Of a DNA stretch of 64,000 nucleotides, positions 13,288 through 29,978 are shown piece by piece. Source of the DNA: Candidatus Bathyarchaeota archaeon (GTDB lineage: Archaea; Thermoproteota; Bathyarchaeia; 40CM-2-53-6; RBG-13-38-9); contig CAWECG010000003.1 in the NCBI GenBank assembly GCA_963807605.1, positions 96,001 through 160,000 of the forward strand, read 5' to 3'. The notes beneath the pieces were generated by a model that had not been told where the DNA came from, did no database searches, and was given only the letters and a program-made list of their open reading frames with translations. The number at the start of each line of letters is the position of its first letter. Positions within the stretch are counted from its first letter, which is position 1. Made by a program: the position numbers and the translations under genes.

Positions 13288-14088
13288 TTGGTCACGGCAG
13301 GGAGGAGGATAGATCCGTCTGCAGTAGTGAGTGAGTCAGCAAAGGTCGGACTAGGTTGCTGTATTGAAGCGGGAGTCGAGATAATGGGTGGCGCAAAACT
13401 TGAAGACTCTGTATGGTTGGATTCGAATGTTACCATCTACGGAGACGTTACCATCAAGGAGTCGGCCTATATTGGGAAGGGCTGTATTGTAGGTCACCCA
13501 AAACGGCAAGATCTCAAGAAGATGATCAAGAGCAGGGTAAAGGAGGTGGCCTTCTCCGGGCGTTCAATTCTAGGAAGGAGATCCACCATGAGATCAGGCT
13601 CAATAGTTTATTCTGATGTGGCTGTTGGCGACAATGTGGAATTAGGTCACAATGTAATAATCCGAGAGCAGTCAAGTATAGGAGATAACTCGTTGATTGG
13701 AACCAATGTTGTAATTGATGGCGAGACAACAGTAGGGAAAGGTGTCTCCATACAAACGGGTGTATATATTTGCAGAAGATCAACGATTGAAGACTTCGTC
13801 TTTCTCGGACCCTATTGCATATTCACAAACGACAAGTATGCGATGCAGAGAGAGACGGACCTCAAGGGGCCAATTGTTAAGAAAGGTGCCAGCATAGGAG
13901 CCAACTCAACACTAATGCCCGGAGTGACTGTCGGTGAAGGTGCAGTCGTTGGGGCCCACGCTGTTGTAACAAGGAATGTCCCAGCTGGGACGATGTTCTT
14001 GGGAGTTCCCGCACGTCAAGTGAAGAGAGTTCCTGAGGGTTGGAGGTCACTCCTGGAAGAGCGGCACCGGAGAGCAACTATTCTCTAA
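13288..14088 (+). CDS. Left-handed beta-helix (hexapeptide repeat) acyltransferase
   Basis: Many [LIV]G hexapeptides, FTND and GVPAR. Confidence 0.88.
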   Translation: MVTAGRRIDPSAVVSESAKVGLGCCIEAGVEIMGGAKLEDSVWLDSNVTIYGDVTIKESAYIGKGCIVGHPKRQDLKKMIKSRVKEVAFSGRSILGRRSTMRSGSIVYSDVAVGDNVELGHNVIIREQSSIGDNSLIGTNVVIDGETTVGKGVSIQTGVYICRRSTIEDFVFLGPYCIFTNDKYAMQRETDLKGPIVKKGASIGANSTLMPGVTVGEGAVVGAHAVVTRNVPAGTMFLGVPARQVKRVPEGWRSLLEERHRRATIL

Positions 14089-14119
14089 TGCAACTGAGCT
14101 TGGGTTTCCTACGCGGAGA

Positions 14120-14515
14120 CTAGGCTTTCTCGACCTTGATTCTCTCTCCATCCTTGACCTTATTGAAGACTCTGGCATCGCCAACGATTCTTCCGAAGAC
14201 ATTAACAGAGCTTGCGGCCACAGGTTTGTTGCCGCTACTTGCGGGTGTTTTTCCGAAGAATATGCAGAAACAATTTCCAGCGGGCCAGTATCCGCAGTCA
14301 CCCACCTCAACCTCACACTGTCCCTTCTCGTCACTGACATTTACTGGAATACTGAAGTAGACTTCCTCGCCCCACGTACTTGCTCTGGACTCAAAAGGAA
14401 GACTATCAAGTATAGCCTTGGCGGTTTTAGGGTTCCTCTCGTCAAGTACTTCGGCCTCAACGTAGCCGGTACTAGGAGTATGGATTTTTATTCTTGTCGA
14501 CATAAGATTCACCAA
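14120..14515 (-). CDS. Cyclophilin-like fold protein (DUF369-type)
   Basis: NPKTA...LP...WGEEVYF...YWPAG..FCIFFG.TP. Confidence 0.85.
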   Translation of the reverse strand: MVNLMSTRIKIHTPSTGYVEAEVLDERNPKTAKAILDSLPFESRASTWGEEVYFSIPVNVSDEKGQCEVEVGDCGYWPAGNCFCIFFGKTPASSGNKPVAASSVNVFGRIVGDARVFNKVKDGERIKVEKA

Positions 14516-14749
14516 TTCACCATTTTGGTTTCGGAAATATATAAGACTGTAACATGTGTTGACCAGGCCCTTTTTTCCTTGGAGCTGATCGAGCTCGGAT
14601 CCTCAGGTGTGAGGTAGTGTTCCACGGTGAGAGCGTAGCAGCCAAATTTCTGACTTTAAAAATGTCTCGATTACTCCGCCACCATTCTTGAAAGAGAACT
14701 GTCAGGGCTCTGCCCACTTCAAACCCTCAATTCTCCTTAGCGCGCGAAG

Positions 14750-15073
14750 TCATTTCTGGCCTTGTGGAGGGGTAGGTCTGACCTCCACCTTCATGACGTT
14801 TTCCTTATCTTGTCCTACTATTCTCCATTTGGCTTTCACGAGAATATCAACATCTTTCTCGATTTTTGATGAAGCCACAAAAGTTCCCGTTGCACGCCCT
14901 TTGGGATCAGTCTTGACTTTTTCAGCTTCCATCGAGCCCGCATCTTTCGGCTCAACCTCGAAGGATATTTCTACGCCCGCGATACCTCTCCCACTCTCCT
15001 GTATCTCAATAGTGAATACACTCTTCTCTCCAGGGCGTATCGTCCGGGGTTCTCTCATCATAGACCAATTCAA
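14750..15073 (-). CDS. Small beta-sandwich (Ig-like) hypothetical protein
   Basis: Alternating beta-strand pattern and a TDPKGRA motif resembling Big_1-type domains; GGTGA SD upstream. Confidence 0.6.
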   Translation of the reverse strand: MNWSMMREPRTIRPGEKSVFTIEIQESGRGIAGVEISFEVEPKDAGSMEAEKVKTDPKGRATGTFVASSKIEKDVDILVKAKWRIVGQDKENVMKVEVRPTPPQGQK

Positions 15074-15118
15074 TTAAGAGTCACCTACAGATCTCCATTC
15101 CCTCCAGTTCTGGAATAT

Positions 15119-15148
15119 AAAAAGAAAGTGCCAGCATTCGTAATGCTG
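15119..15148 (-). terminator. Hairpin plus U-tract downstream of the 50-aa peptide gene
   Basis: CAGCATT-CGT-AATGCTG stem (15132-15148) followed on the minus strand by CTTTCTTTTT. Confidence 0.45.
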
Positions 15149-15166
15149 ACTACGATGGGCTAGGTC

Positions 15167-15319
15167 TTAGCACCAGAAGGGTAAGAACGGATAATAAAAG
15201 GGCGTCGGGGAGCAGTAGTAGGGAATTGGGTAGTAGCAGGAAGACATCCAAGGATAAGCCCACATATATGGCATAGTCCACGTGTACGGCCAACATCCTC
15301 CGAATGGATAAACGAACAT
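15167..15319 (-). CDS. 50-aa Tyr/Pro/Trp/Cys-rich peptide (below the ORF-track cutoff)
   Basis: MFVYPFGGCWPYTWTMPYMWAYPWMSSCYYPIPYYCSPTPFYYPFLPFWC*; AGGTGA SD 5 nt upstream of the ATG; terminator-like structure downstream. Confidence 0.65.
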   Translation of the reverse strand: MFVYPFGGCWPYTWTMPYMWAYPWMSSCYYPIPYYCSPTPFYYPFLPFWC

Positions 15320-15504
15320 CACAATCACCTACAAAACATGGAGTGTTCCCGCGTATTTTTCAAGGTTTCTAAAACCGTCAAACAATAAAGCAATGAAGGG
15401 GGCTACATCATATGTCAAATCAAGAGCTTTAAGCGACGGTTGAGGATTCAACTTAGCCGTGACAGAAACCGCTAAGGGTATCTTGTTGGCAACTATTTGG
15501 TGAG

Positions 15505-18109: not shown

Positions 18110-19594
18110 TCAAGGTGAATATCTGAAGGGATGCTTCGCCATCTCACTATCCCTAAGAAGTTCCTCTACTGTTGGTCTACCTTCGACGGCCTTTCTAGTC
18201 GCGTGTCTCATAGCTTTGTAGTTGTTTATGTAGACCCGTTTTCTATCCACTGCAGAGGGATGAACAAAAACATTCGTTATTACGATCAGTTCGTCGACGA
18301 CAGCCTCAGGTAGCGTGCCGTCGCCCACACAGTCCATAACTGCCTTTGCAACAGCTGCTTGAGCAGGACCGTAGACCATGCTCGCCTGCCGCATATTCTT
18401 AATTGTCACTGTCGGAATGATCAGGGTTGTCGGCTTGACAGCGAGATTTGGTTCAAGGATGGCGATCAGTGGTTCGTGACCTGCAGAGGGCGTTGCCCTA
18501 GCCTTTGCGAAGGCTTCCGCCAAGGGACCGTCCCTACTTCCCAACATCACTTCTATGTGAGCAACCTCGGGGCCCGACCCCGCAAGTGACTCTCCGGTCT
18601 TGAGTCTAAAGTTCTTGACGAATTCATCTGTGACACCTATTTTGGCAAATCCCTCAGCTACAAGTTTGGGAGACTCAACTTCTGCTGCGGTAGATTTCAC
18701 TTTTAGTTTCCCAATCTTCTCCAAGTCGATCCTCAACTCTTCCATATCCTCGTAAGTCAACTCTCCTCCAACAGATAGCGGCAGCCTAACGGGCCCCACT
18801 TTGACTCCTAACATGTTGAGCGCAGCCTTAGACCCAACTGGACCGCTTCGAGCTGTGATTCTGGCAATCTTCTGGATCCCCAGTTGAGTCACCCGTCCTG
18901 AATTGAGGTCTCCCTTCTTCACTGCATCATAGACTTTGACCCAGACATCAGGTATGAAATTCGCACTCGCAAGGATCATACCTGATGCTCCGACTGCAAG
19001 TGCTGGAAGGACAACTTCGTCGTGCCCGCATAGCACCGAGAGCCTAGAGCCTGTCTTCTCGAAGACAGAGAGCATGTATCTTAGTTCTCCACTGCTATCC
19101 TTGAGTCCAATTATGTTAGGAATCTCAACAAGGTCTTCCACCATCTGCCAGCTTAGGTTCACACCAGTGGCTTGGGGGATATTGTATAAGATAATTGGAA
19201 GATCAACTGCCTCAGTCAGTGTTCTGTAATGTTCGTAGATCCCCCTATCCATGGGCTTGTGATAGTATGGCGTAACCACAAGGGCAGCATCAGCACCAAC
19301 ATCTTTAGCGTGTCGTGTCAACTCTATGGTTAGTTTGGTGCTGCTGTGTCCAGTCCCGGCTATGACAGGGATCCTCCCTTTAGCCTGGTCCACCACGATC
19401 TCAATGACCTTCTTTCTCTCATCCAATGAGAGGTTCTGAAATTCACCCGTTGTACCGCATGGTACCAAGGCTGAGACGCCCCGCTCAATAACGTAGTCGA
19501 CTAACCCTCTAAGCCGTCTTTCGTCTACCTGGTTTCCATCATCAGTAAAGGGGGTTACAAGAGCCGGCATTACACCCTGAGGTCTGAACACCAT
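18110..19594 (-). CDS. Fusion of a DapA/NAL-family aldolase (aa 1-~295) with formaldehyde-activating enzyme Fae (aa ~331-494)
   Basis: Aldolase part: LVTPF, GTTGE, LYNIP, GLKDS. Fae part: GESLAG..PEVAHI, KPTTLIIP.VTIK, GPAQAAVAKAV, NY, KHPF. One continuous reading frame. Confidence 0.9.
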   Translation of the reverse strand: MVFRPQGVMPALVTPFTDDGNQVDERRLRGLVDYVIERGVSALVPCGTTGEFQNLSLDERKKVIEIVVDQAKGRIPVIAGTGHSSTKLTIELTRHAKDVGADAALVVTPYYHKPMDRGIYEHYRTLTEAVDLPIILYNIPQATGVNLSWQMVEDLVEIPNIIGLKDSSGELRYMLSVFEKTGSRLSVLCGHDEVVLPALAVGASGMILASANFIPDVWVKVYDAVKKGDLNSGRVTQLGIQKIARITARSGPVGSKAALNMLGVKVGPVRLPLSVGGELTYEDMEELRIDLEKIGKLKVKSTAAEVESPKLVAEGFAKIGVTDEFVKNFRLKTGESLAGSGPEVAHIEVMLGSRDGPLAEAFAKARATPSAGHEPLIAILEPNLAVKPTTLIIPTVTIKNMRQASMVYGPAQAAVAKAVMDCVGDGTLPEAVVDELIVITNVFVHPSAVDRKRVYINNYKAMRHATRKAVEGRPTVEELLRDSEMAKHPFRYSP

Positions 19595-21418: not shown

Positions 21419-22918
21419 TTGAAAATTCACCGAACGATAGAACAGATCAATGAGAAAATACGGAAAGGCGAGGCAACGGTCGTTACAGCGGAGGAAATGA
21501 CTGAAATTGTCAGAAGCCGAGGAGTTGAAGTTGCTGCTAGAGATGTCGACGTGGTCACGACTGGGACCTTTGGTGCAATGTGCGGTTCAGGCGTTTTCCT
21601 GAATTTCGGTCACTCCGACCCTCCAATCAAGATGGAGAGTGTTACACTAAATGGCGTCGAGGCCTATCACGGAAACGCAGCTGTGGATGCATATCTCGGC
21701 GCGACGAAGATGCACCCGGAAAAAAGGTTTGATTACGGTGGAGGCCACGTAATAGAGGATCTCGTCTCTGGTAAAGAAGTAGAGCTAGTCGCTACTGGGT
21801 ACGGCACAGACTGTTATCCAAGGAAGTCTATCAGAACATCGGTAACCATAGATGATCTAAACCAGGCAATCCTCTGCAATCCAAGAAATGCCTATCAGAA
21901 GTACAACGCTGCCACAAATGGAAGGGACGAGTTGATATACACTTACATGGGAAAGCTCCTCCCAAATTATGGGAACGCCACATACTCCGGCTCCGGTGAA
22001 CTGAACCCTCTTACAAACGATCCTGATTACGAGAGCATAGGTGTGGGCACACGGATCTTTCTCGGCGGCGGAATAGGATACGTAACCGGTCCCGGAACCC
22101 AACATGAACCAGCAAACGGATTAGGCACCCTGATGGTTCAGGGCGACCTCAAAAGGATGAACTCAAAATTCCTCAGAGGCGGCAGCTTCACGAACTATGG
22201 TGCAACACTCTACGTCGGGCTTGGCATACCGATACCAATACTCAACGAGGGACTGGCCATGAAGACTGGCGTAAGTGACGAAGAGGTCAAGACGAATCTC
22301 TTGGACTATGGGATCCCACGCAGGAGCAGACCGATCATTAAAGTGACGGACTATGCGGAACTCAAATCAGGAAAGATAAGGCTGAAAGATAGAACAATCC
22401 CCGTCACCGCCCTCTCAAGTCTCAGGCTTGCGAGAGAAGTTGCGTCAACATTGAAACGTTGGATCAACGAAGGAAAGTTTCTACTCACATCTCCACAGGA
22501 AAGGCTACCACATGTAGGAACACTGAAACCAATGAAGATAAGCAGAGAAACATTATTCGCTCAGAACATAATGGTTCCTGCTGTAACATGCAAACCTGAA
22601 GAAGATATCGATACAGTAGCCAGGCGAATAGTTGAAGAGAACGTCAATCATGTGGTTGCTGTAGAACCAGCAGGAGCGCTCAGCGGCATCGTCACCTCAT
22701 TCGACATTACTAGAGCCGTCGCTCTGAAAAAGCGCAAACTCTCTGACGTGATGACCAAGCAGGTCGTGACAGCCTCACCAGACGAGCCTATTGAGTCATG
22801 TGTGCGGAAGATGAAGAAACACGATATCTCAGCCCTACCAGTTATCGATGCGGAGAGGAATATTCTCGGCATCGTGACCAGTGAACGAATCAGCAGATTG
22901 TTTGGGGAGTACCAGTAG
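21419..22918 (+). CDS. L-aspartate semialdehyde sulfurtransferase (DUF39-CBS, MA1821/MJ0100 family)
   Basis: INEKI..G.A.VVTAEE, DVVTTGTFGAMC, GYGTDCYPR and NPRNAYQ; C-terminal CBS pair. Confidence 0.9.
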   Translation: MKIHRTIEQINEKIRKGEATVVTAEEMTEIVRSRGVEVAARDVDVVTTGTFGAMCGSGVFLNFGHSDPPIKMESVTLNGVEAYHGNAAVDAYLGATKMHPEKRFDYGGGHVIEDLVSGKEVELVATGYGTDCYPRKSIRTSVTIDDLNQAILCNPRNAYQKYNAATNGRDELIYTYMGKLLPNYGNATYSGSGELNPLTNDPDYESIGVGTRIFLGGGIGYVTGPGTQHEPANGLGTLMVQGDLKRMNSKFLRGGSFTNYGATLYVGLGIPIPILNEGLAMKTGVSDEEVKTNLLDYGIPRRSRPIIKVTDYAELKSGKIRLKDRTIPVTALSSLRLAREVASTLKRWINEGKFLLTSPQERLPHVGTLKPMKISRETLFAQNIMVPAVTCKPEEDIDTVARRIVEENVNHVVAVEPAGALSGIVTSFDITRAVALKKRKLSDVMTKQVVTASPDEPIESCVRKMKKHDISALPVIDAERNILGIVTSERISRLFGEYQ

Positions 22919-22919
22919 T

Positions 22920-23303
22920 ATGAAGGCACGTTTAAGATTCAACAAGGAAAGGACCGCAGAGCCGATCATATCCTCGGTAATACTGAAGACCAAGGCTCCA
23001 ATAAACATCCTTCGAGCCGAAGTGGACGAGAGCGAAGGAGAAGTTCTTGTTGAGGTTCCAGATGAGAAGGCAGAGGGGACTATCGCAGCCTTCAAACAGA
23101 TGGGCGTCGATGTTCAAGTCGGACGATTCATAGAGATTTCGCGTGAGAGATGCATTGACTGTGGACATTGCATAACGATATGCCCGGTTGCAGCCATAGC
23201 AGCAGGAGAGGACCTCTCGGTCAACATCGATCCTCAGAAGTGCATAAATTGTGGGGCATGCATCGACTCCTGCCCAACAAGAGCTATCAAGATGCTCCAG
23301 TAG
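22920..23303 (+). CDS. NIL-domain 2x[4Fe-4S] ferredoxin (MA1822-like)
   Basis: INILRA NIL motif and two CxxCxxCxxxCP motifs; start corrected to the ATG at 22920. Confidence 0.9.
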   Translation: MKARLRFNKERTAEPIISSVILKTKAPINILRAEVDESEGEVLVEVPDEKAEGTIAAFKQMGVDVQVGRFIEISRERCIDCGHCITICPVAAIAAGEDLSVNIDPQKCINCGACIDSCPTRAIKMLQ

Positions 23304-23314
23304 GAGGGTGGGAC

Positions 23315-24046
23315 ATGGCAGAGGCACTTACATATCGAAGAGTAATCGGAGAGTCTTCAATACTAGTCAAGACGGACTTTCATGAGACTGCTGAAGCTGC
23401 CTTCCAAACGATCACCAGGAATAGAGTGGAACTTGAGAGGTACGTAAGAGCCTTCCCTGAATTTCTCCTCGCGCTAGATCCCCTGAGAGTAAGCCAAGAC
23501 GCTCCTGAGATCGTCGTGAGGATGTCTCAAGCCGCTGAAAAGGCAAATGTAGGCCCGATGGCTGCTGTTGCCGGAGCCTTGGCGGATCTCGCAACCGAGG
23601 AGATGACTAGACAGGGGGCAAAGATTGCAGTCGTCGAGAACGGTGGAGAGATCTCGATCCGAAGTGAAGTCAAGGTGGATGTGGCAATATATTCAGGGAA
23701 ATCTCCTATCTCCGGAAGACTTGGCTTCCGAATCCTTCCACATGAGATTCCTCTTGGCCTTGCCACAAGCTCCGGCACTGTAGGCCATGCTCTGAGCTTC
23801 GGTTTTGCCGATTCAGCCACAGTCATAGCTGATGATGCAGCTCTGGCGGATGCAGCGGCGACGGCGGTCTGTAATGCTGTTGAAGACGAAGATTTGGAGA
23901 TTTCGATCCAGAAGGGTTTGAAGGTTGCCAGTACAATTCAAGGAGTTAGAGGAGCTCTAATAGTTAGAGACGACCATGTGGGCATGGTCGGGCGTCTTCC
24001 AGAACTAATCGGCATAGACCTTTGTTCTCAGTCTCAATCGCGTTAG
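23315..24046 (+). CDS. UPF0280/ApbE-like protein (COG2122)
   Basis: VGPMAAVAGA, ENGGEI, TSSGTVGHALSFG and ADAAATA; start corrected to the ATG at 23315. Confidence 0.88.
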   Translation: MAEALTYRRVIGESSILVKTDFHETAEAAFQTITRNRVELERYVRAFPEFLLALDPLRVSQDAPEIVVRMSQAAEKANVGPMAAVAGALADLATEEMTRQGAKIAVVENGGEISIRSEVKVDVAIYSGKSPISGRLGFRILPHEIPLGLATSSGTVGHALSFGFADSATVIADDAALADAAATAVCNAVEDEDLEISIQKGLKVASTIQGVRGALIVRDDHVGMVGRLPELIGIDLCSQSQSR

Positions 24047-24833: not shown

Positions 24834-25337
24834 TCAGTATATCGAGACCTTGGCTATCCCGGGAACCTTAAGCAGTTTTGGGATCAGTTCGCCGGGCAAT
24901 TCCTTCTCAGCTATCAGCGTTAGCTTAGGCTCAGGGGAGAGTTCTGGGTCATCCACTATAGCTTGCCTGATGCTTATGTTGTGCTCAGAGATTAACGTTG
25001 AAGCCTTTGCTAAGATTCCTACGGAGTGCGGGTCTTGGGGGGTTATCTCCAAGACGCCGAATTCGAGATGTTTTGCAATCTCCCTGAGCGATAGACCGGC
25101 AGATCTCATATGCGTGAATATCTCCTTCAACTGAGGGTTGGAGGAGATCGTCTGGATTGTCTTGGTGACGGTTCTCCTATCCACCCCTGCTGCTTGGGCA
25201 ACCCTTTTTGTCGGGATCTCTATTTGGTTGCAGTAAATCTTCCCATCCCTTATTGAGAGCCCAGTCTCGATGAGGAGTCGGGCTACTGCAAGTCTTTCTG
25301 GGTGTCCTTCCAAATGTTTGGCAATATTGCTCCACAT
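24834..25337 (-). CDS. ACT-domain regulator of amino-acid metabolism (COG2150-like)
   Basis: N-terminal HTH GVDRR and C-terminal ACT GIL...ISIRQAI.DDPE; start moved to MWSNI. Confidence 0.85.
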   Translation of the reverse strand: MWSNIAKHLEGHPERLAVARLLIETGLSIRDGKIYCNQIEIPTKRVAQAAGVDRRTVTKTIQTISSNPQLKEIFTHMRSAGLSLREIAKHLEFGVLEITPQDPHSVGILAKASTLISEHNISIRQAIVDDPELSPEPKLTLIAEKELPGELIPKLLKVPGIAKVSIY

Positions 25338-25435
25338 GGTAGTCCACATAATATTTTGAGTATTAATGTGTACACGAAAGATTAAAATATTTCCTAGAGG
25401 TCCAAGAAAGGACAAAAACGTAAAGAGTGATACAA

Positions 25436-26806
25436 ATGTCAAAAAAGACAGTCAAAGTCAACCTGACCACTGATGAGATGCCTAAGAGATGGTACAACAT
25501 ACTACCACACCTTCCTCCAGGCTACCCGCCCCCTCTGGACCCGAAGACTCTCAAGCCTCTATCGCCAGAACCGCTGTTGAGGCTTTTCGCTAAGGAATGC
25601 ATCATGCAGGCTGTCTCAACTCAGCCTGAGATAGACATTCCAGAAGAAGTCCTTGAGACATACATGACAATGGGGAGGCCAACCCCTCTGCAGCGTGCAG
25701 CAAGACTAGAGAAACACCTTGGAACACCTGCCAAGATCTATTTCAAGAGAGAAGACGTCAATCCTGTTGGAAGCCACAAACCGAATACTGCCATACCCCA
25801 GGCCTACTACAGCATGAAAGACGGCGCTGAAAGGCTCACAACTGAAACGGGAGCTGGACAGTGGGGTTCAGCACTCGCCTTAGCATGTGCTCTTTTCGAT
25901 TTGGACTTAACTGTGTATATGACAAGGAGCAGCTATCTGAGCAAGCCGGGCCGAAAAACAATGATAGAGGCCTACGGAGCAAATGTGTTCCCTTCTCCGA
26001 GTGACAACACTGAAGTGGGGAGGGAAATGCTCAAGCAGGATCCAAATCATCCTGGAAGCCTCGGGATAGCTATCAGCGAAGCGGTTGAAGACTGCTTAAA
26101 AGATGACAAGACAAAATACTCTCTCGGAAGCGTTCTGGACTTTGTCTTATTACACCAAAGCATAATCGGACTTGAAGCCAAGAAGCAGATGGAACTTTTT
26201 GACGCCTACCCGGATATCGTGATTGGCTGCATCGGCGGCGGAAGCAACTTTGGAGGCATCAGCTACCCGTTCCTTCATGACAAACTAAAGGGCAAAAGAG
26301 ACACGAGATTCATCGGAGTCGAACCTTCAGCAGTACCCTCCACAACCAAAGGCGTCTATCAATACGACTATGGCGACACATCAGAGCTTACATTTCTGGC
26401 CAAGATGTATACTGTAGGACACACTTTCCAATGTCCACCCATCCATGCCGGAGGCCTAAGATACCACGGAAAAGCACCAAGCCTGTCCTTCCTGATAAAC
26501 AAGGGTTTGATTGAGAGCCGCGCTTACGGTCAAAGACAAGCAATGGAGGCAGCAGACCTATTCGCCAACACTGAAGGCTTCATAGCTGCACCAGAGACTG
26601 CACATGCAATCAAAGCGACCATAGACCTTGCTCTTGAGTGCAAGAAGACAGGCGAAGAGAAGGCGATACTCTTCAACTATAGCGGCCACGGACTTCTCGA
26701 CCTCAGTGTCTACGACGAATACCATGCGAGCACCCTGAAAGATTTTGCGGCCACCAAGGAGATGTTGGAGGCTGGGCTTAGGTCACTACCTAAGATCCCT
26801 GCCTGA
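25436..26806 (+). CDS. trpB2: Tryptophan synthase beta chain type 2
   Basis: GSHKPNTA (PLP Lys), TETGAGQWG, GGGSN, HAGGLRYHG and SGHGLLD. Confidence 0.93.
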   Translation: MSKKTVKVNLTTDEMPKRWYNILPHLPPGYPPPLDPKTLKPLSPEPLLRLFAKECIMQAVSTQPEIDIPEEVLETYMTMGRPTPLQRAARLEKHLGTPAKIYFKREDVNPVGSHKPNTAIPQAYYSMKDGAERLTTETGAGQWGSALALACALFDLDLTVYMTRSSYLSKPGRKTMIEAYGANVFPSPSDNTEVGREMLKQDPNHPGSLGIAISEAVEDCLKDDKTKYSLGSVLDFVLLHQSIIGLEAKKQMELFDAYPDIVIGCIGGGSNFGGISYPFLHDKLKGKRDTRFIGVEPSAVPSTTKGVYQYDYGDTSELTFLAKMYTVGHTFQCPPIHAGGLRYHGKAPSLSFLINKGLIESRAYGQRQAMEAADLFANTEGFIAAPETAHAIKATIDLALECKKTGEEKAILFNYSGHGLLDLSVYDEYHASTLKDFAATKEMLEAGLRSLPKIPA

Positions 26807-28940: not shown

Positions 28941-29978
28941 TAGTAGCTAACTTAAGTATTTGACTATATTTAATCTGAATCTCTTTGTTCTCAGCGTCTT
29001 TGAGATCTCTTTCTTCATGGCTTCGAATGTCGGATGGATGTGGTTGGCTTGTATGATGTCCTTGCTCTGTCTCCAGCATTCCTCGATGGGGTTGAGTTCC
29101 GGCCTGGCTGAGGGGAACCACTTGACATTTATGCAGCTGCGATTTTTGCGCAGCCACCGTTGGACACGTCGGTTGCGGTGATGGGGTACAGACTTATCTA
29201 GAAAGATAAGGAATACGCCGAACTTTCGTTTAAGCACCCTCATGTAGGCGAGGAAGCTTTCACCGTTTATCGCATCGTACTGCCGGAAGAGCTGCCTACT
29301 GTCGAGGGAGACGGCGCCGAAGAGGCAGGTGCGACGGTGGGAACCCGTTGTCAATACCATGGGCGTGCGTCCCCTCTTGGCCCACACGTAGCGGGAGACA
29401 GAGTCGTAGAGGAAGATGGACTCGTCCTCGCATAATACCGTCCAACCGTTCCTTTCCGCCTCTTTTACCGCTTTTTTCGCCCTTTTTTAAAACGGTTGAC
29501 CTCTTCGTCTGAGGCAGCGTTGACGTGCCTTCTGTCTGGTCGCTTTCTTGAAAGCCCCCACGAGTGGAGGAGACGGGTGATGTGCATGAGCGAGTACCGG
29601 ACGCCGGTCTGCTCATGAACAAGCTTCAGGACCTCCGTGGCGGTGGTGTACTCCTTCCCCTTCACGATTCTCTTTATGCACTCCATCTCCATGCTGGAGA
29701 TTTTCTGAGGTCTTCCAGACTTGGGCTTATTACGTAGACCGGGAAGCCCTTCCTTCTGGAAGCGGTACTTCCAGTAGAGGACCTTGGAGTGGGGACAATT
29801 ATGCTCCCTACCCACATCGTAGGAGGAGAGGCCGTCCAAAAGCTTCAGCACCATCAGAATCCTCTCTTTGACCTTCAGGTTCTTTTCGGCTCTCCACGCC
29901 TCTTCCAGAACTGACCTATCCATGCAATCCTGAATGCCTGATGTTACATAAATAGTCAACTACTTTAGTTAGTCACTA
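28941..29978 (-). mobile_element. IS630-family insertion sequence
   Basis: Imperfect TIRs TAGTAGCTAACTTAAGTATTTGACTAT versus reverse-complement TAGTGACTAACTAAAGTAGTTGACTAT; TA flanks at 28939-40 and 29979-80. Confidence 0.9.
28947..29959 (-). CDS. IS630 transposase, two ORFs (HTH plus DDE) joined by a -1 frameshift
   Basis: OrfA has HTH, GRP and FKK. The -1 frame reads LCEDES...LDKS..H...PELNPIE. In-frame slippery A_AAA_AAG at 29471-29477. Confidence 0.85.

Follow-up and report, generated by a model that had tools for sequence, protein, structure and literature searches.

The 64,000-nucleotide window studied here (positions 96,001 to 160,000 of contig CAWECG010000003.1, from a Candidatus Bathyarchaeota archaeon) contains a gene in which a class I aldolase of the dihydrodipicolinate synthase/N-acetylneuraminate lyase (DHDPS/NAL) family is fused to a formaldehyde-activating enzyme (Fae) domain. 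The closest described system is the archaeal Fae-Hps protein (profile NF009833), in which Fae is also joined to a barrel aldolase and the arrangement is read as a hand-over of formaldehyde between an aldol reaction and tetrahydromethanopterin (H4MPT). In contrast to Fae-Hps, the present protein has the reverse domain order, its partner barrel is a Schiff-base DHDPS/NAL aldolase and not Hps, no Hps domain of the orotidine-monophosphate-decarboxylase type lies C-terminal to Fae, the Lys71 of Fae is lost, and split A/B forms exist. It resembles Fae-Hps in logic without belonging to that family, and each of its two domains has a known fold.

Reactions related to the one that we propose have been described in other enzymes. 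KHG aldolase interconverts pyruvate plus formaldehyde and 4-hydroxy-2-oxobutanoate (HOB; PMC3439479, which cites Lane, Shapley and Dekker 1971 on homoserine metabolism), but this enzyme is of the KDPG-aldolase type and the formaldehyde reaction is a side activity; transaminases in turn interconvert HOB and homoserine (PMC9792984). The synthetic homoserine cycle, built on a HOB aldolase and a HOB aminotransferase, and PanB-type transfer involve the same C4 intermediate and a net C1 transfer (PMC7918591, PMC8879981). The cycle is engineered, uses promiscuous class II enzymes and depends on free formaldehyde or tetrahydrofolate (THF), whereas the fusion would be natural, dedicated, two-site and H4MPT-linked. 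A literature search on formaldehyde-activating enzyme with dihydrodipicolinate returned no paper on an aldolase-Fae fusion, and the Bathyarchaeia survey by Hou et al. mentions fae without the fusion (PMC10321748).

We propose, with about an even chance of being right, that the fusion is a two-site, probably reversible HOB:H4MPT hydroxymethyltransferase that would interconvert HOB + H4MPT and pyruvate + methylene-H4MPT by way of channelled formaldehyde; the substrate, the carrier ligand, the channelling and the direction of the reaction are the parts that we infer, and the data themselves give the anatomy, the residues, the lost DHDPS determinants, the selection on the Fae site and the gene associations.

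Domain architecture of the aldolase-Fae fusion

The gene and the positions discussed below are as follows, in window coordinates.

18110..19594, minus strand: aldolase-Fae fusion gene, a stand-alone, uninterrupted open reading frame (ORF) of 494 amino acids with an ATG start
18701..19594, minus strand: DHDPS/NAL-family class I aldolase domain, residues 1-298, including Thr48, Thr49, Tyr111, Tyr137, Lys165, Ser167, Asp192, Glu193, Leu208, Gln241 and Arg245
19100..19102, minus strand: codon of the Schiff-base Lys165
19169..19171, minus strand: Ala142, at the position of DHDPS Arg138
18602..18700, minus strand: inter-domain linker, residues 299-331, of low model confidence
18125..18601, minus strand: Fae domain, residues 332-490, with the C-terminal HPF arm
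18557..18559, minus strand: His346, equivalent to Fae His22
18473..18475, minus strand: Glu374 in place of Fae Thr50, family-specific, on the face kept by B copies
18410..18412, minus strand: Thr395 in place of Fae Lys71
21419..24046, plus strand: HcyBio-CBS, ferredoxin and ApbE-like genes (context)

An earlier note made from this DNA had described one ORF joining a class I aldolase barrel to a full Fae domain, and profile matches over both parts bear it out. Pfam places DHDPS at residues 5-274 (E 6e-83) and Fae (PF08714) at residues 333-490, covering profile positions 1-158 of 159 (E 2e-58). Among the NCBIfam profiles, TIGR03126 (Fae; 201 bits, cut-off 118) and TIGR00674 (dapA; 253.8 bits, cut-off 206) are both passed, and the latter score explains the misannotation as DapA. 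The Fae-Hps profile scores 165 against a cut-off of 274, with only its Fae part covered, and the N-acetylneuraminate lyase profiles score 163-176 against cut-offs of 281-382. The motifs quoted in the note were located at residues 47-51 (GTTGE), Tyr137, Lys165 (in GLKDS) and His346 (in VAHI). The aldolase part has the TIM barrel of the DHDPS/NAL superfamily, its GxxGE motif and equivalents of Tyr133 and Lys161. In a single-chain model, the predicted local confidence (pLDDT) of this part is mostly 80-97, with a TM-score of 0.94 to DHDPS chains; the Fae part is weak (about 35-68), and pocket geometry was not taken from it.

The fusion gene is confirmed to be real, neither an artefact nor a chance arrangement, and an assembly artefact is ruled out by full-length fusions in many homologues, loci and genomes. 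The best 120 homologues listed are full-length fusions with 65-97% identity, called DapA where they are named at all. At least 159 related loci occur in GTDB genomes, and the best 80 of these 159 are from Bathyarchaeia, apart from one probably mis-binned case. A survey of domain architecture found the fusion, either complete or truncated at a contig end, in 46 Bathyarchaeia genomes of several orders, out of 151 sampled, and also in other lineages: distant relatives are present in Anaerolineae, Thorarchaeota and Korarchaeota-like genomes, usually as two tandem paralogues. One public contig of 154 bases covers the linker, and none extends across the whole gene. No RNA data set was listed for the gene, which says nothing about its expression. 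Scans for sigma-70 promoters and terminators, which do not cover archaeal promoters, stayed at chance level.

Comparison of the barrel with DapA

The barrel shares with DHDPS (DapA) its fold, about 40% identity and the pyruvate-binding and catalytic residues, but differs in the residues that bind aspartate semialdehyde (ASA). In DHDPS, Arg138 binds the ASA carboxylate. Alignment to solved DHDPS chains places Ala142 at this position, within the YNIPQATG motif in which the earlier note had read the Arg as absent, and shows Asp187 replaced by His191 and Asn248 by Gly251. Across the fusion family, the Arg138 position is Cys, Ala or Val, and none of the aligned rows has Arg, which is found in 70 of the 119 nearest stand-alone relatives; in DHDPS, according to PMC11201819, this Arg is strictly conserved. 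A tree of 205 aldolase domains groups every fusion aldolase in a single clade (SH-aLRT 98), separate from the relatives with Arg, and the members of this clade are almost always fused.

Pathway content agrees with the residues. The window annotation has no dap genes flanking the fusion ORF, as had been noted, and no other gene of the genome passes the DHDPS-family cut-off, so a separate Arg-containing dapA is absent. A profile search of the genome, which is 94% complete, found neither dapB (DapB_C) nor dapF, and a complete lysW-X-Y-Z-J-K cluster is present together with homocitrate synthase. The replaced ASA site, the pathway genes not found and the full LysW route uphold the view that the barrel is not a DHDPS.

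The Fae site and its partition between tandem paralogues

The Fae domain matches Methylobacterium extorquens Fae (PDB 1Y5Y/1Y60) over its full length (E 7e-34) and keeps His22 (His346, the His of VAHI that had been read as retained), Thr73 (Thr397), Gln88 (Gln412) and the C-terminal HPF arm. We take these residues and Asp24 to form the Fae site, with His22 as the proposed general acid, and Lys71 to belong to the H4MPT site. The Asp24 position is Glu348 here; 88% of the fusion family keep Asp. Unlike M. extorquens Fae, the protein is fused, has Thr395 for Lys71 and Glu374 for Thr50, and carries further new conserved charged residues, Arg453 and Lys460. The replacements of Lys71 and Thr50 had escaped the earlier note. 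Thr395 is present in 100% of single genes and A copies, and the genome's own Fae-Hps keeps the Lys (motif PKVT). Judged from these alignments, the Fae site of the fusion is conserved but remodelled. The oligomer has to reconcile a pentamer-forming Fae with a tetramer-forming aldolase domain.

Where two tandem paralogues replace the single gene, their order is B then A in every pair whose motifs were read. Residue conservation was compared in 97 single genes and 50 such pairs. A copies keep Glu335, His346, Thr395, Asn441, Phe443, Arg453, Asn457-Lys460 and His488-Pro489, and B copies keep Glu374, Pro382, Leu384, Arg402, Ala404, Gly409, Pro410, Gln412 and Arg451, while single genes keep both sets; His346, for example, is found in 100% of single genes and A copies and in 6% of B copies. 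That each copy retains the half which the other has lost shows selection on the Fae site, and this partition in 50 pairs counts in favour of the reaction proposed below. Modelled together, the B and A Fae domains scored 0.90 (best control 0.02), a mark that 58 of 80 solved complexes and 2 of 110 mismatched pairs also attain; at least 87% of the contacts agree between runs, and the partner pLDDT is at least 82. This pass may merely reflect likeness to a solved complex, the Fae pentamer. Residues kept only by A copies lie at the modelled interface seven times on A's side and never on B's, and those kept only by B copies seven times on B's side and once on A's. The model was of the B+A pair; the window protein most likely builds the same inter-subunit Fae site as a homo-oligomer. 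Such pairs would offer a clear natural example of duplicated genes that share out an active site lying between subunits. From the tree, either the single gene or the pair may be the older form. At one locus (L118:10001-12684), the A and B aldolase domains group together (98), which suggests gene conversion or independent duplication.

Proposed reaction and the aldolase active site

In the reaction that we propose, the substrate would be a 4-hydroxy-2-oxo acid bound to Lys165 as a Schiff base, most likely HOB (the keto acid that corresponds to homoserine), and retro-aldol cleavage would yield formaldehyde and pyruvate. The Fae site between neighbouring subunits would then combine formaldehyde with H4MPT to give methylene-H4MPT, and transaminases would connect HOB with homoserine. 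In this genome, one gene would supply both faces of the Fae site, and elsewhere each tandem paralogue would supply one. The direction would be set by physiology: in the auxotrophic majority, breakdown of homoserine- or methionine-derived C4 units to pyruvate and C1 for the H4MPT branch is the most likely use, and in the few prototrophs without homoserine dehydrogenase, homoserine synthesis is possible. A broader version of the proposal, which we hold more tentatively and place somewhat short of an even chance, sees a natural ATP-free route between pyruvate plus methylene-H4MPT and the homoserine/methionine C4 backbone, formed by the Schiff-base aldolase, the remodelled Fae and, in most lineages, an unknown barrel enzyme. 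It would be catabolic in peptide-fermenting Bathyarchaeia, Asgard archaea and Anaerolineae, and in some prototrophs it would run anabolically and take over from homoserine dehydrogenase.

The aldolase catalytic set is intact in single genes, A copies and B copies alike: Thr48, Thr49, Tyr137 and Lys165 are kept in 96-100% of all copies, Lys165 in 98-99% of each of the three groups. A useful comparison is 4-hydroxy-2-oxoglutarate aldolase (HOGA), which resembles DHDPS, cleaves a 4-hydroxy-2-oxo acid, binds the 4-OH through Ser198 and retains wild-type activity as Y140F (PMC3188589). Both proteins have a DHDPS-like fold without Arg138, a Ser at the second position after the Lys (Ser167 aligns with Ser198) and a dispensable inter-subunit Tyr; in the fusion, this last property is read from the Phe found in 62% of A and 84% of B copies together with the active HOGA mutant. 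They differ in that HOGA Ser77/Asn78 are Thr48/Thr49 in the fusion, and in that a C1-carrier domain is absent from HOGA. Taken by itself, Ser167 is a weak argument. In one tandem pair (L120:8544-11449, GCA_003560875), with MtnA and a class II aldolase in its vicinity, both aldolase domains are without the Schiff-base Lys and have an altered GTTGE, and the Fae half-sites are kept.

Homoserine genes and amino-acid auxotrophy

The 151 sampled Bathyarchaeia comprise 46 carriers of the fusion and 105 non-carriers; these genomes are related and incomplete, so the counts below are indicative and p-values overstate. Homoserine dehydrogenase (hom) is present in 11/46 carriers vs 83/105 others, asd in 15/46 vs 80/105, HcyBio in 11/46 vs 62/105 and thrB in 15/46 vs 63/105, and all four are jointly missing in 20 carriers. 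Individual loci show related arrangements. In one carrier (G031), the fusion is directly followed by thrB and then thrC; in another (G147, L230:7112-8176), hom lies on the opposite strand within the usually tight fusion-trmI junction. In a third (G110, L108:7560-10193), hom is directly upstream of a fusion with one frameshift, which may be a sequencing error, and this case was not used as evidence of displacement.

Several findings weigh against the proposed reaction. The control gene hisB, from an unrelated pathway, is found in 11/46 carriers vs 70/105 others, a depletion almost as strong as that of hom, so general auxotrophy accounts for much of the hom signal. In G031, the aspartate kinase gene is at the contig end, and the lack of asd and hom may be an assembly gap. 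The genome studied here has hom as well as an ordinary Fae-Hps. Ser167 is shared by 58 of 119 stand-alone relatives. Asp192/Glu193 align with NAL Asp191/Glu192, and Glu193 is conserved in 99-100%; in NAL, Glu192 binds the sugar O8/O9, hydroxyls distant from the new bond (PMC3014015). A one-carbon acceptor would have no need of such a residue, and the pair argues for a possibly larger substrate. The ligand of the Fae site may also differ, because Lys71 is lost. Both copies of the L120 pair lack the Schiff-base Lys, and the role of a near-obligate barrel partner, described below, is left unexplained.

Some specific homoserine link survives the hisB control: hom depletion persists both in genomes with hisB (3/11 carriers vs 63/70 others) and in those without it (8/35 vs 20/35). 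In addition, ilvC is missing from most carriers of families f7, f8, f15, f28 and f29, and f28 is additionally without thrC; most carriers outside the family of this genome (f1) are thus broad amino-acid auxotrophs. Catabolic use fits such carriers better, because they cannot convert homoserine to threonine by a known kinase, and comparative genomics suggests a catabolic role at least as frequent as a biosynthetic one. A purely anabolic "homoserine bypass" is weakened by the hisB and ilvC controls. In this genome, lysC, asd (in an aromatic-synthesis run), hom (near metX) and HcyBio are all present, and thrB was not found. The fusion is not needed here for homoserine synthesis, and the presence of hom, asd and lysC makes salvage or catabolic use more likely. 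HOB, named as an example substrate in the earlier note, gains independent support from the homoserine-gene links. The interpretation in that note is partly upheld as a whole; the invariant NAL-like Asp192/Glu193, the lost Lys71 and the Fae-Hps already present speak against a simple version of it.

Family f1 comprises seven genomes (G000, which is the genome of the window, G022, G072, G079, G082, G127 and G145). All have hisB, ilvC, asd and HcyBio, while thrB is present in 1/7, hom in 2/7 and a strong thrC match in G072 only. Threonine aldolase, considered as their route to threonine, gave no convincing match in five genomes. The ThrC-like gene of G000 (L239:5674-7140) has a C-terminal helix-turn-helix (HTH)-like extension and lies beside genes resembling a pyridoxal phosphate (PLP) synthase and trp genes. 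In family f12 (11 genomes), hom and thrC matches occur in all and TIGR00191 thrB in none, which suggests an unrecognised homoserine kinase.

A possible larger substrate

The NAL-like residues could also be explained if the same architecture acted on a larger polyhydroxy 2-oxo acid, with the remodelled Fae handling formaldehyde or another short aldehyde; we consider this unlikely, though well short of negligible. Candidates would be a 2-keto-3-deoxy sugar acid, or a hydroxypyruvate-based or branched hydroxymethyl acid, for example from the salvage of S-adenosylmethionine (SAM) by-products. The barrel shares with N-acetylneuraminate lyase (NanA) the GxDE motif (Asp191/Glu192), invariant in the family, and the absence of Arg at position 142. 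The Lys71-to-Thr and Thr50-to-Glu changes in Fae fit a different ligand, and SAM and nucleoside salvage genes recur as neighbours: genes resembling methylthioadenosine (MTA) phosphorylase and MTA/S-adenosylhomocysteine deaminase directly downstream, a SAM-hydrolase-like gene, MtnA with a class II aldolase, and AhcY in 11 loci. On the other hand, the AhcY neighbour is convergent and most of its loci are kin, the MtaP, MtaD and SAM-hydrolase matches fall below curated cut-offs, and about 190 loci show no sugar-acid dehydratase, kinase or transporter as a conserved neighbour. The fusion also differs from NanA in scoring below the profile cut-offs and in having Leu208/Ala209 for NanA Gly207/Ser208; Leu208 is invariant and may narrow the acceptor pocket, which would disfavour a bulky acceptor. 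Finally, a larger substrate leaves the residual hom anti-correlation unexplained.

Genomic context and the barrel partner

The fusion is convergent with a ribophorin-like gene, and alba lies 179 bp upstream. These neighbours, together with trmI and a kinase gene, were rejected as functional links and represent lineage synteny. A cluster of HcyBio-CBS (PF01837), ferredoxin (140 aa, two ferredoxin-type Cys motifs) and ApbE-like genes is divergent from the fusion at 1.8 kb and is kept in close relatives; HcyBio is found divergently near the fusion in 8 of the 9 closest relatives' loci, the contig reaching it in 8, and in 7/7 genomes of f1. This gene set is the archaeal route from ASA to homocysteine.

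Elsewhere, the place of HcyBio, or the first place of a co-oriented three-gene run, is taken by x311 or U430, two distantly related and nearly mutually exclusive barrel genes. One or the other is present in 36/39 carriers outside f1, 7/105 non-carriers and 0/7 f1 genomes, and in bacteria the barrel gene is co-oriented upstream of the B-A pair. The barrel partner has no Pfam match and no sequence match in the PDB; Atlas labels 17-58% of its members "U32-like", x311 has a generic TIM-barrel fold without a discriminating structural match (best Z 15, many ties), and the plasmid contexts of the partner are heterogeneous. On a plasmid of Polaromonas, an aerobic proteobacterium (L223, CP087967.1), a U430 homologue with 55% identity lies near a stand-alone dapA-like gene and a PLP enzyme of Cys/Met metabolism, with no Fae fusion annotated in the region. 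In G130 (L231:6656-8850), U430 is divergent from asd, and no fusion was found there, where the contig ends.

This partner invites a second alternative, an improbable one in our judgement, in which the fusion and x311/U430 form a sulfur-amino-acid module. They would interconvert pyruvate + C1 + thiol and 4-mercapto- or 4-methylthio-2-oxobutanoate, the keto acids of homocysteine and methionine, and would replace Asd and HcyBio or degrade methionine. Besides the distribution and orientation of the two barrel types, HcyBio occurs in 3/43 barrel genomes vs 70/108 others, the two are exactly complementary in f15, f29 and f8, and f1, without a barrel, has HcyBio beside the fusion. However, hisB is distributed likewise (3/43 barrel genomes vs 78/108 others), so most of the pattern is accounted for by auxotrophy, and the generic barrel fold gives no discriminating structural match.

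The H4MPT branch expected in the host is present: a gene cluster of this genome encodes Mch and Mtd (recognised by profile) and Fwd and Ftr-like proteins (recognised by sequence). By profile counts over the 151 Bathyarchaeia genomes, Mch is found in 41/46 carriers vs 80/105 others, a weak association consistent with an H4MPT role, and the fusion in 0/11 genomes of three Mch-less genera. The Fae-Hps encoded in the same genome, together with the lost Lys71, the new charged residues Glu374, Arg453 and Lys460, and the L120 pair in which the Fae half-sites outlast Lys165, would fit a third alternative, about as improbable as the sulfur module or slightly more so. In it, formaldehyde does not link the two domains: the site in the Fae fold would bind a different ligand, catalyse a different reaction or have a regulatory role, and the fusion would serve assembly or co-regulation. 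Against this stand the kept His22, Asp24 (Glu here), Thr73, Gln88 and C-terminal arm, and the single clade of fusion aldolases, which are almost always fused.

A PanB analogue, converting methylene-H4MPT and 2-oxoisovalerate to ketopantoate, would suit the anatomy of a hydroxymethyltransferase but is very unlikely. Replacement of PanB is ruled out by the panB gene of this genome and by the absence of depletion in carriers (23/46 vs 28/105 others). Within the H4MPT cluster of G000 (C4, about 358000-378000; L221), panB lies between fwd genes and transketolase-like, mtd and ftr-like genes, and its product may use methylene-H4MPT instead of methylene-THF. The least likely of all is a true DHDPS of lysine synthesis, as the databases name it: the TIGR00674 score, the status of sole family member and the presence of asd speak for it, but the strictly conserved Arg138 is replaced along with Asp187 and Asn248, dapB and dapF were not found beside a complete lysWXYZJK set, and only 15/46 carriers have asd.

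Significance

About 30% of sampled Bathyarchaeia carry the fusion misnamed as DapA, which inflates inferred lysine (diaminopimelate) pathways and confuses fae counts; Bathyarchaeia and Anaerolineae are abundant in anoxic sediments. If the HOB:H4MPT hydroxymethyltransferase reading is true, the fusion would be a natural aldolase dedicated to pyruvate and formaldehyde that captures the C1 unit itself, where the cited papers describe side activities or engineered methylotrophy only. It would also represent a new entry of amino-acid carbon into the H4MPT branch and, in the broader version of the proposal, a natural counterpart of the designed homoserine cycle. The single-gene form is the simplest version to express, with no second paralogue and, in this family, no barrel partner.

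Other observations in the genome

The only match to the serine hydroxymethyltransferase (SHMT) family in G000 (L219:1357-2727; C3, about 14060-15430) is divergent, at 172 bits, and adjoins an Fe-S oxidoreductase-like gene; no canonical high-scoring glyA was found in this genome. At 24834-26806 of the window, the genes of a TrpB2-type PLP enzyme and an HTH/ACT-domain protein are divergent, and a NucS-like gene follows. At 28947-29959 on the minus strand, two adjacent ORFs of 164 and 146 aa resemble, by eye, a split IS630-type transposase.

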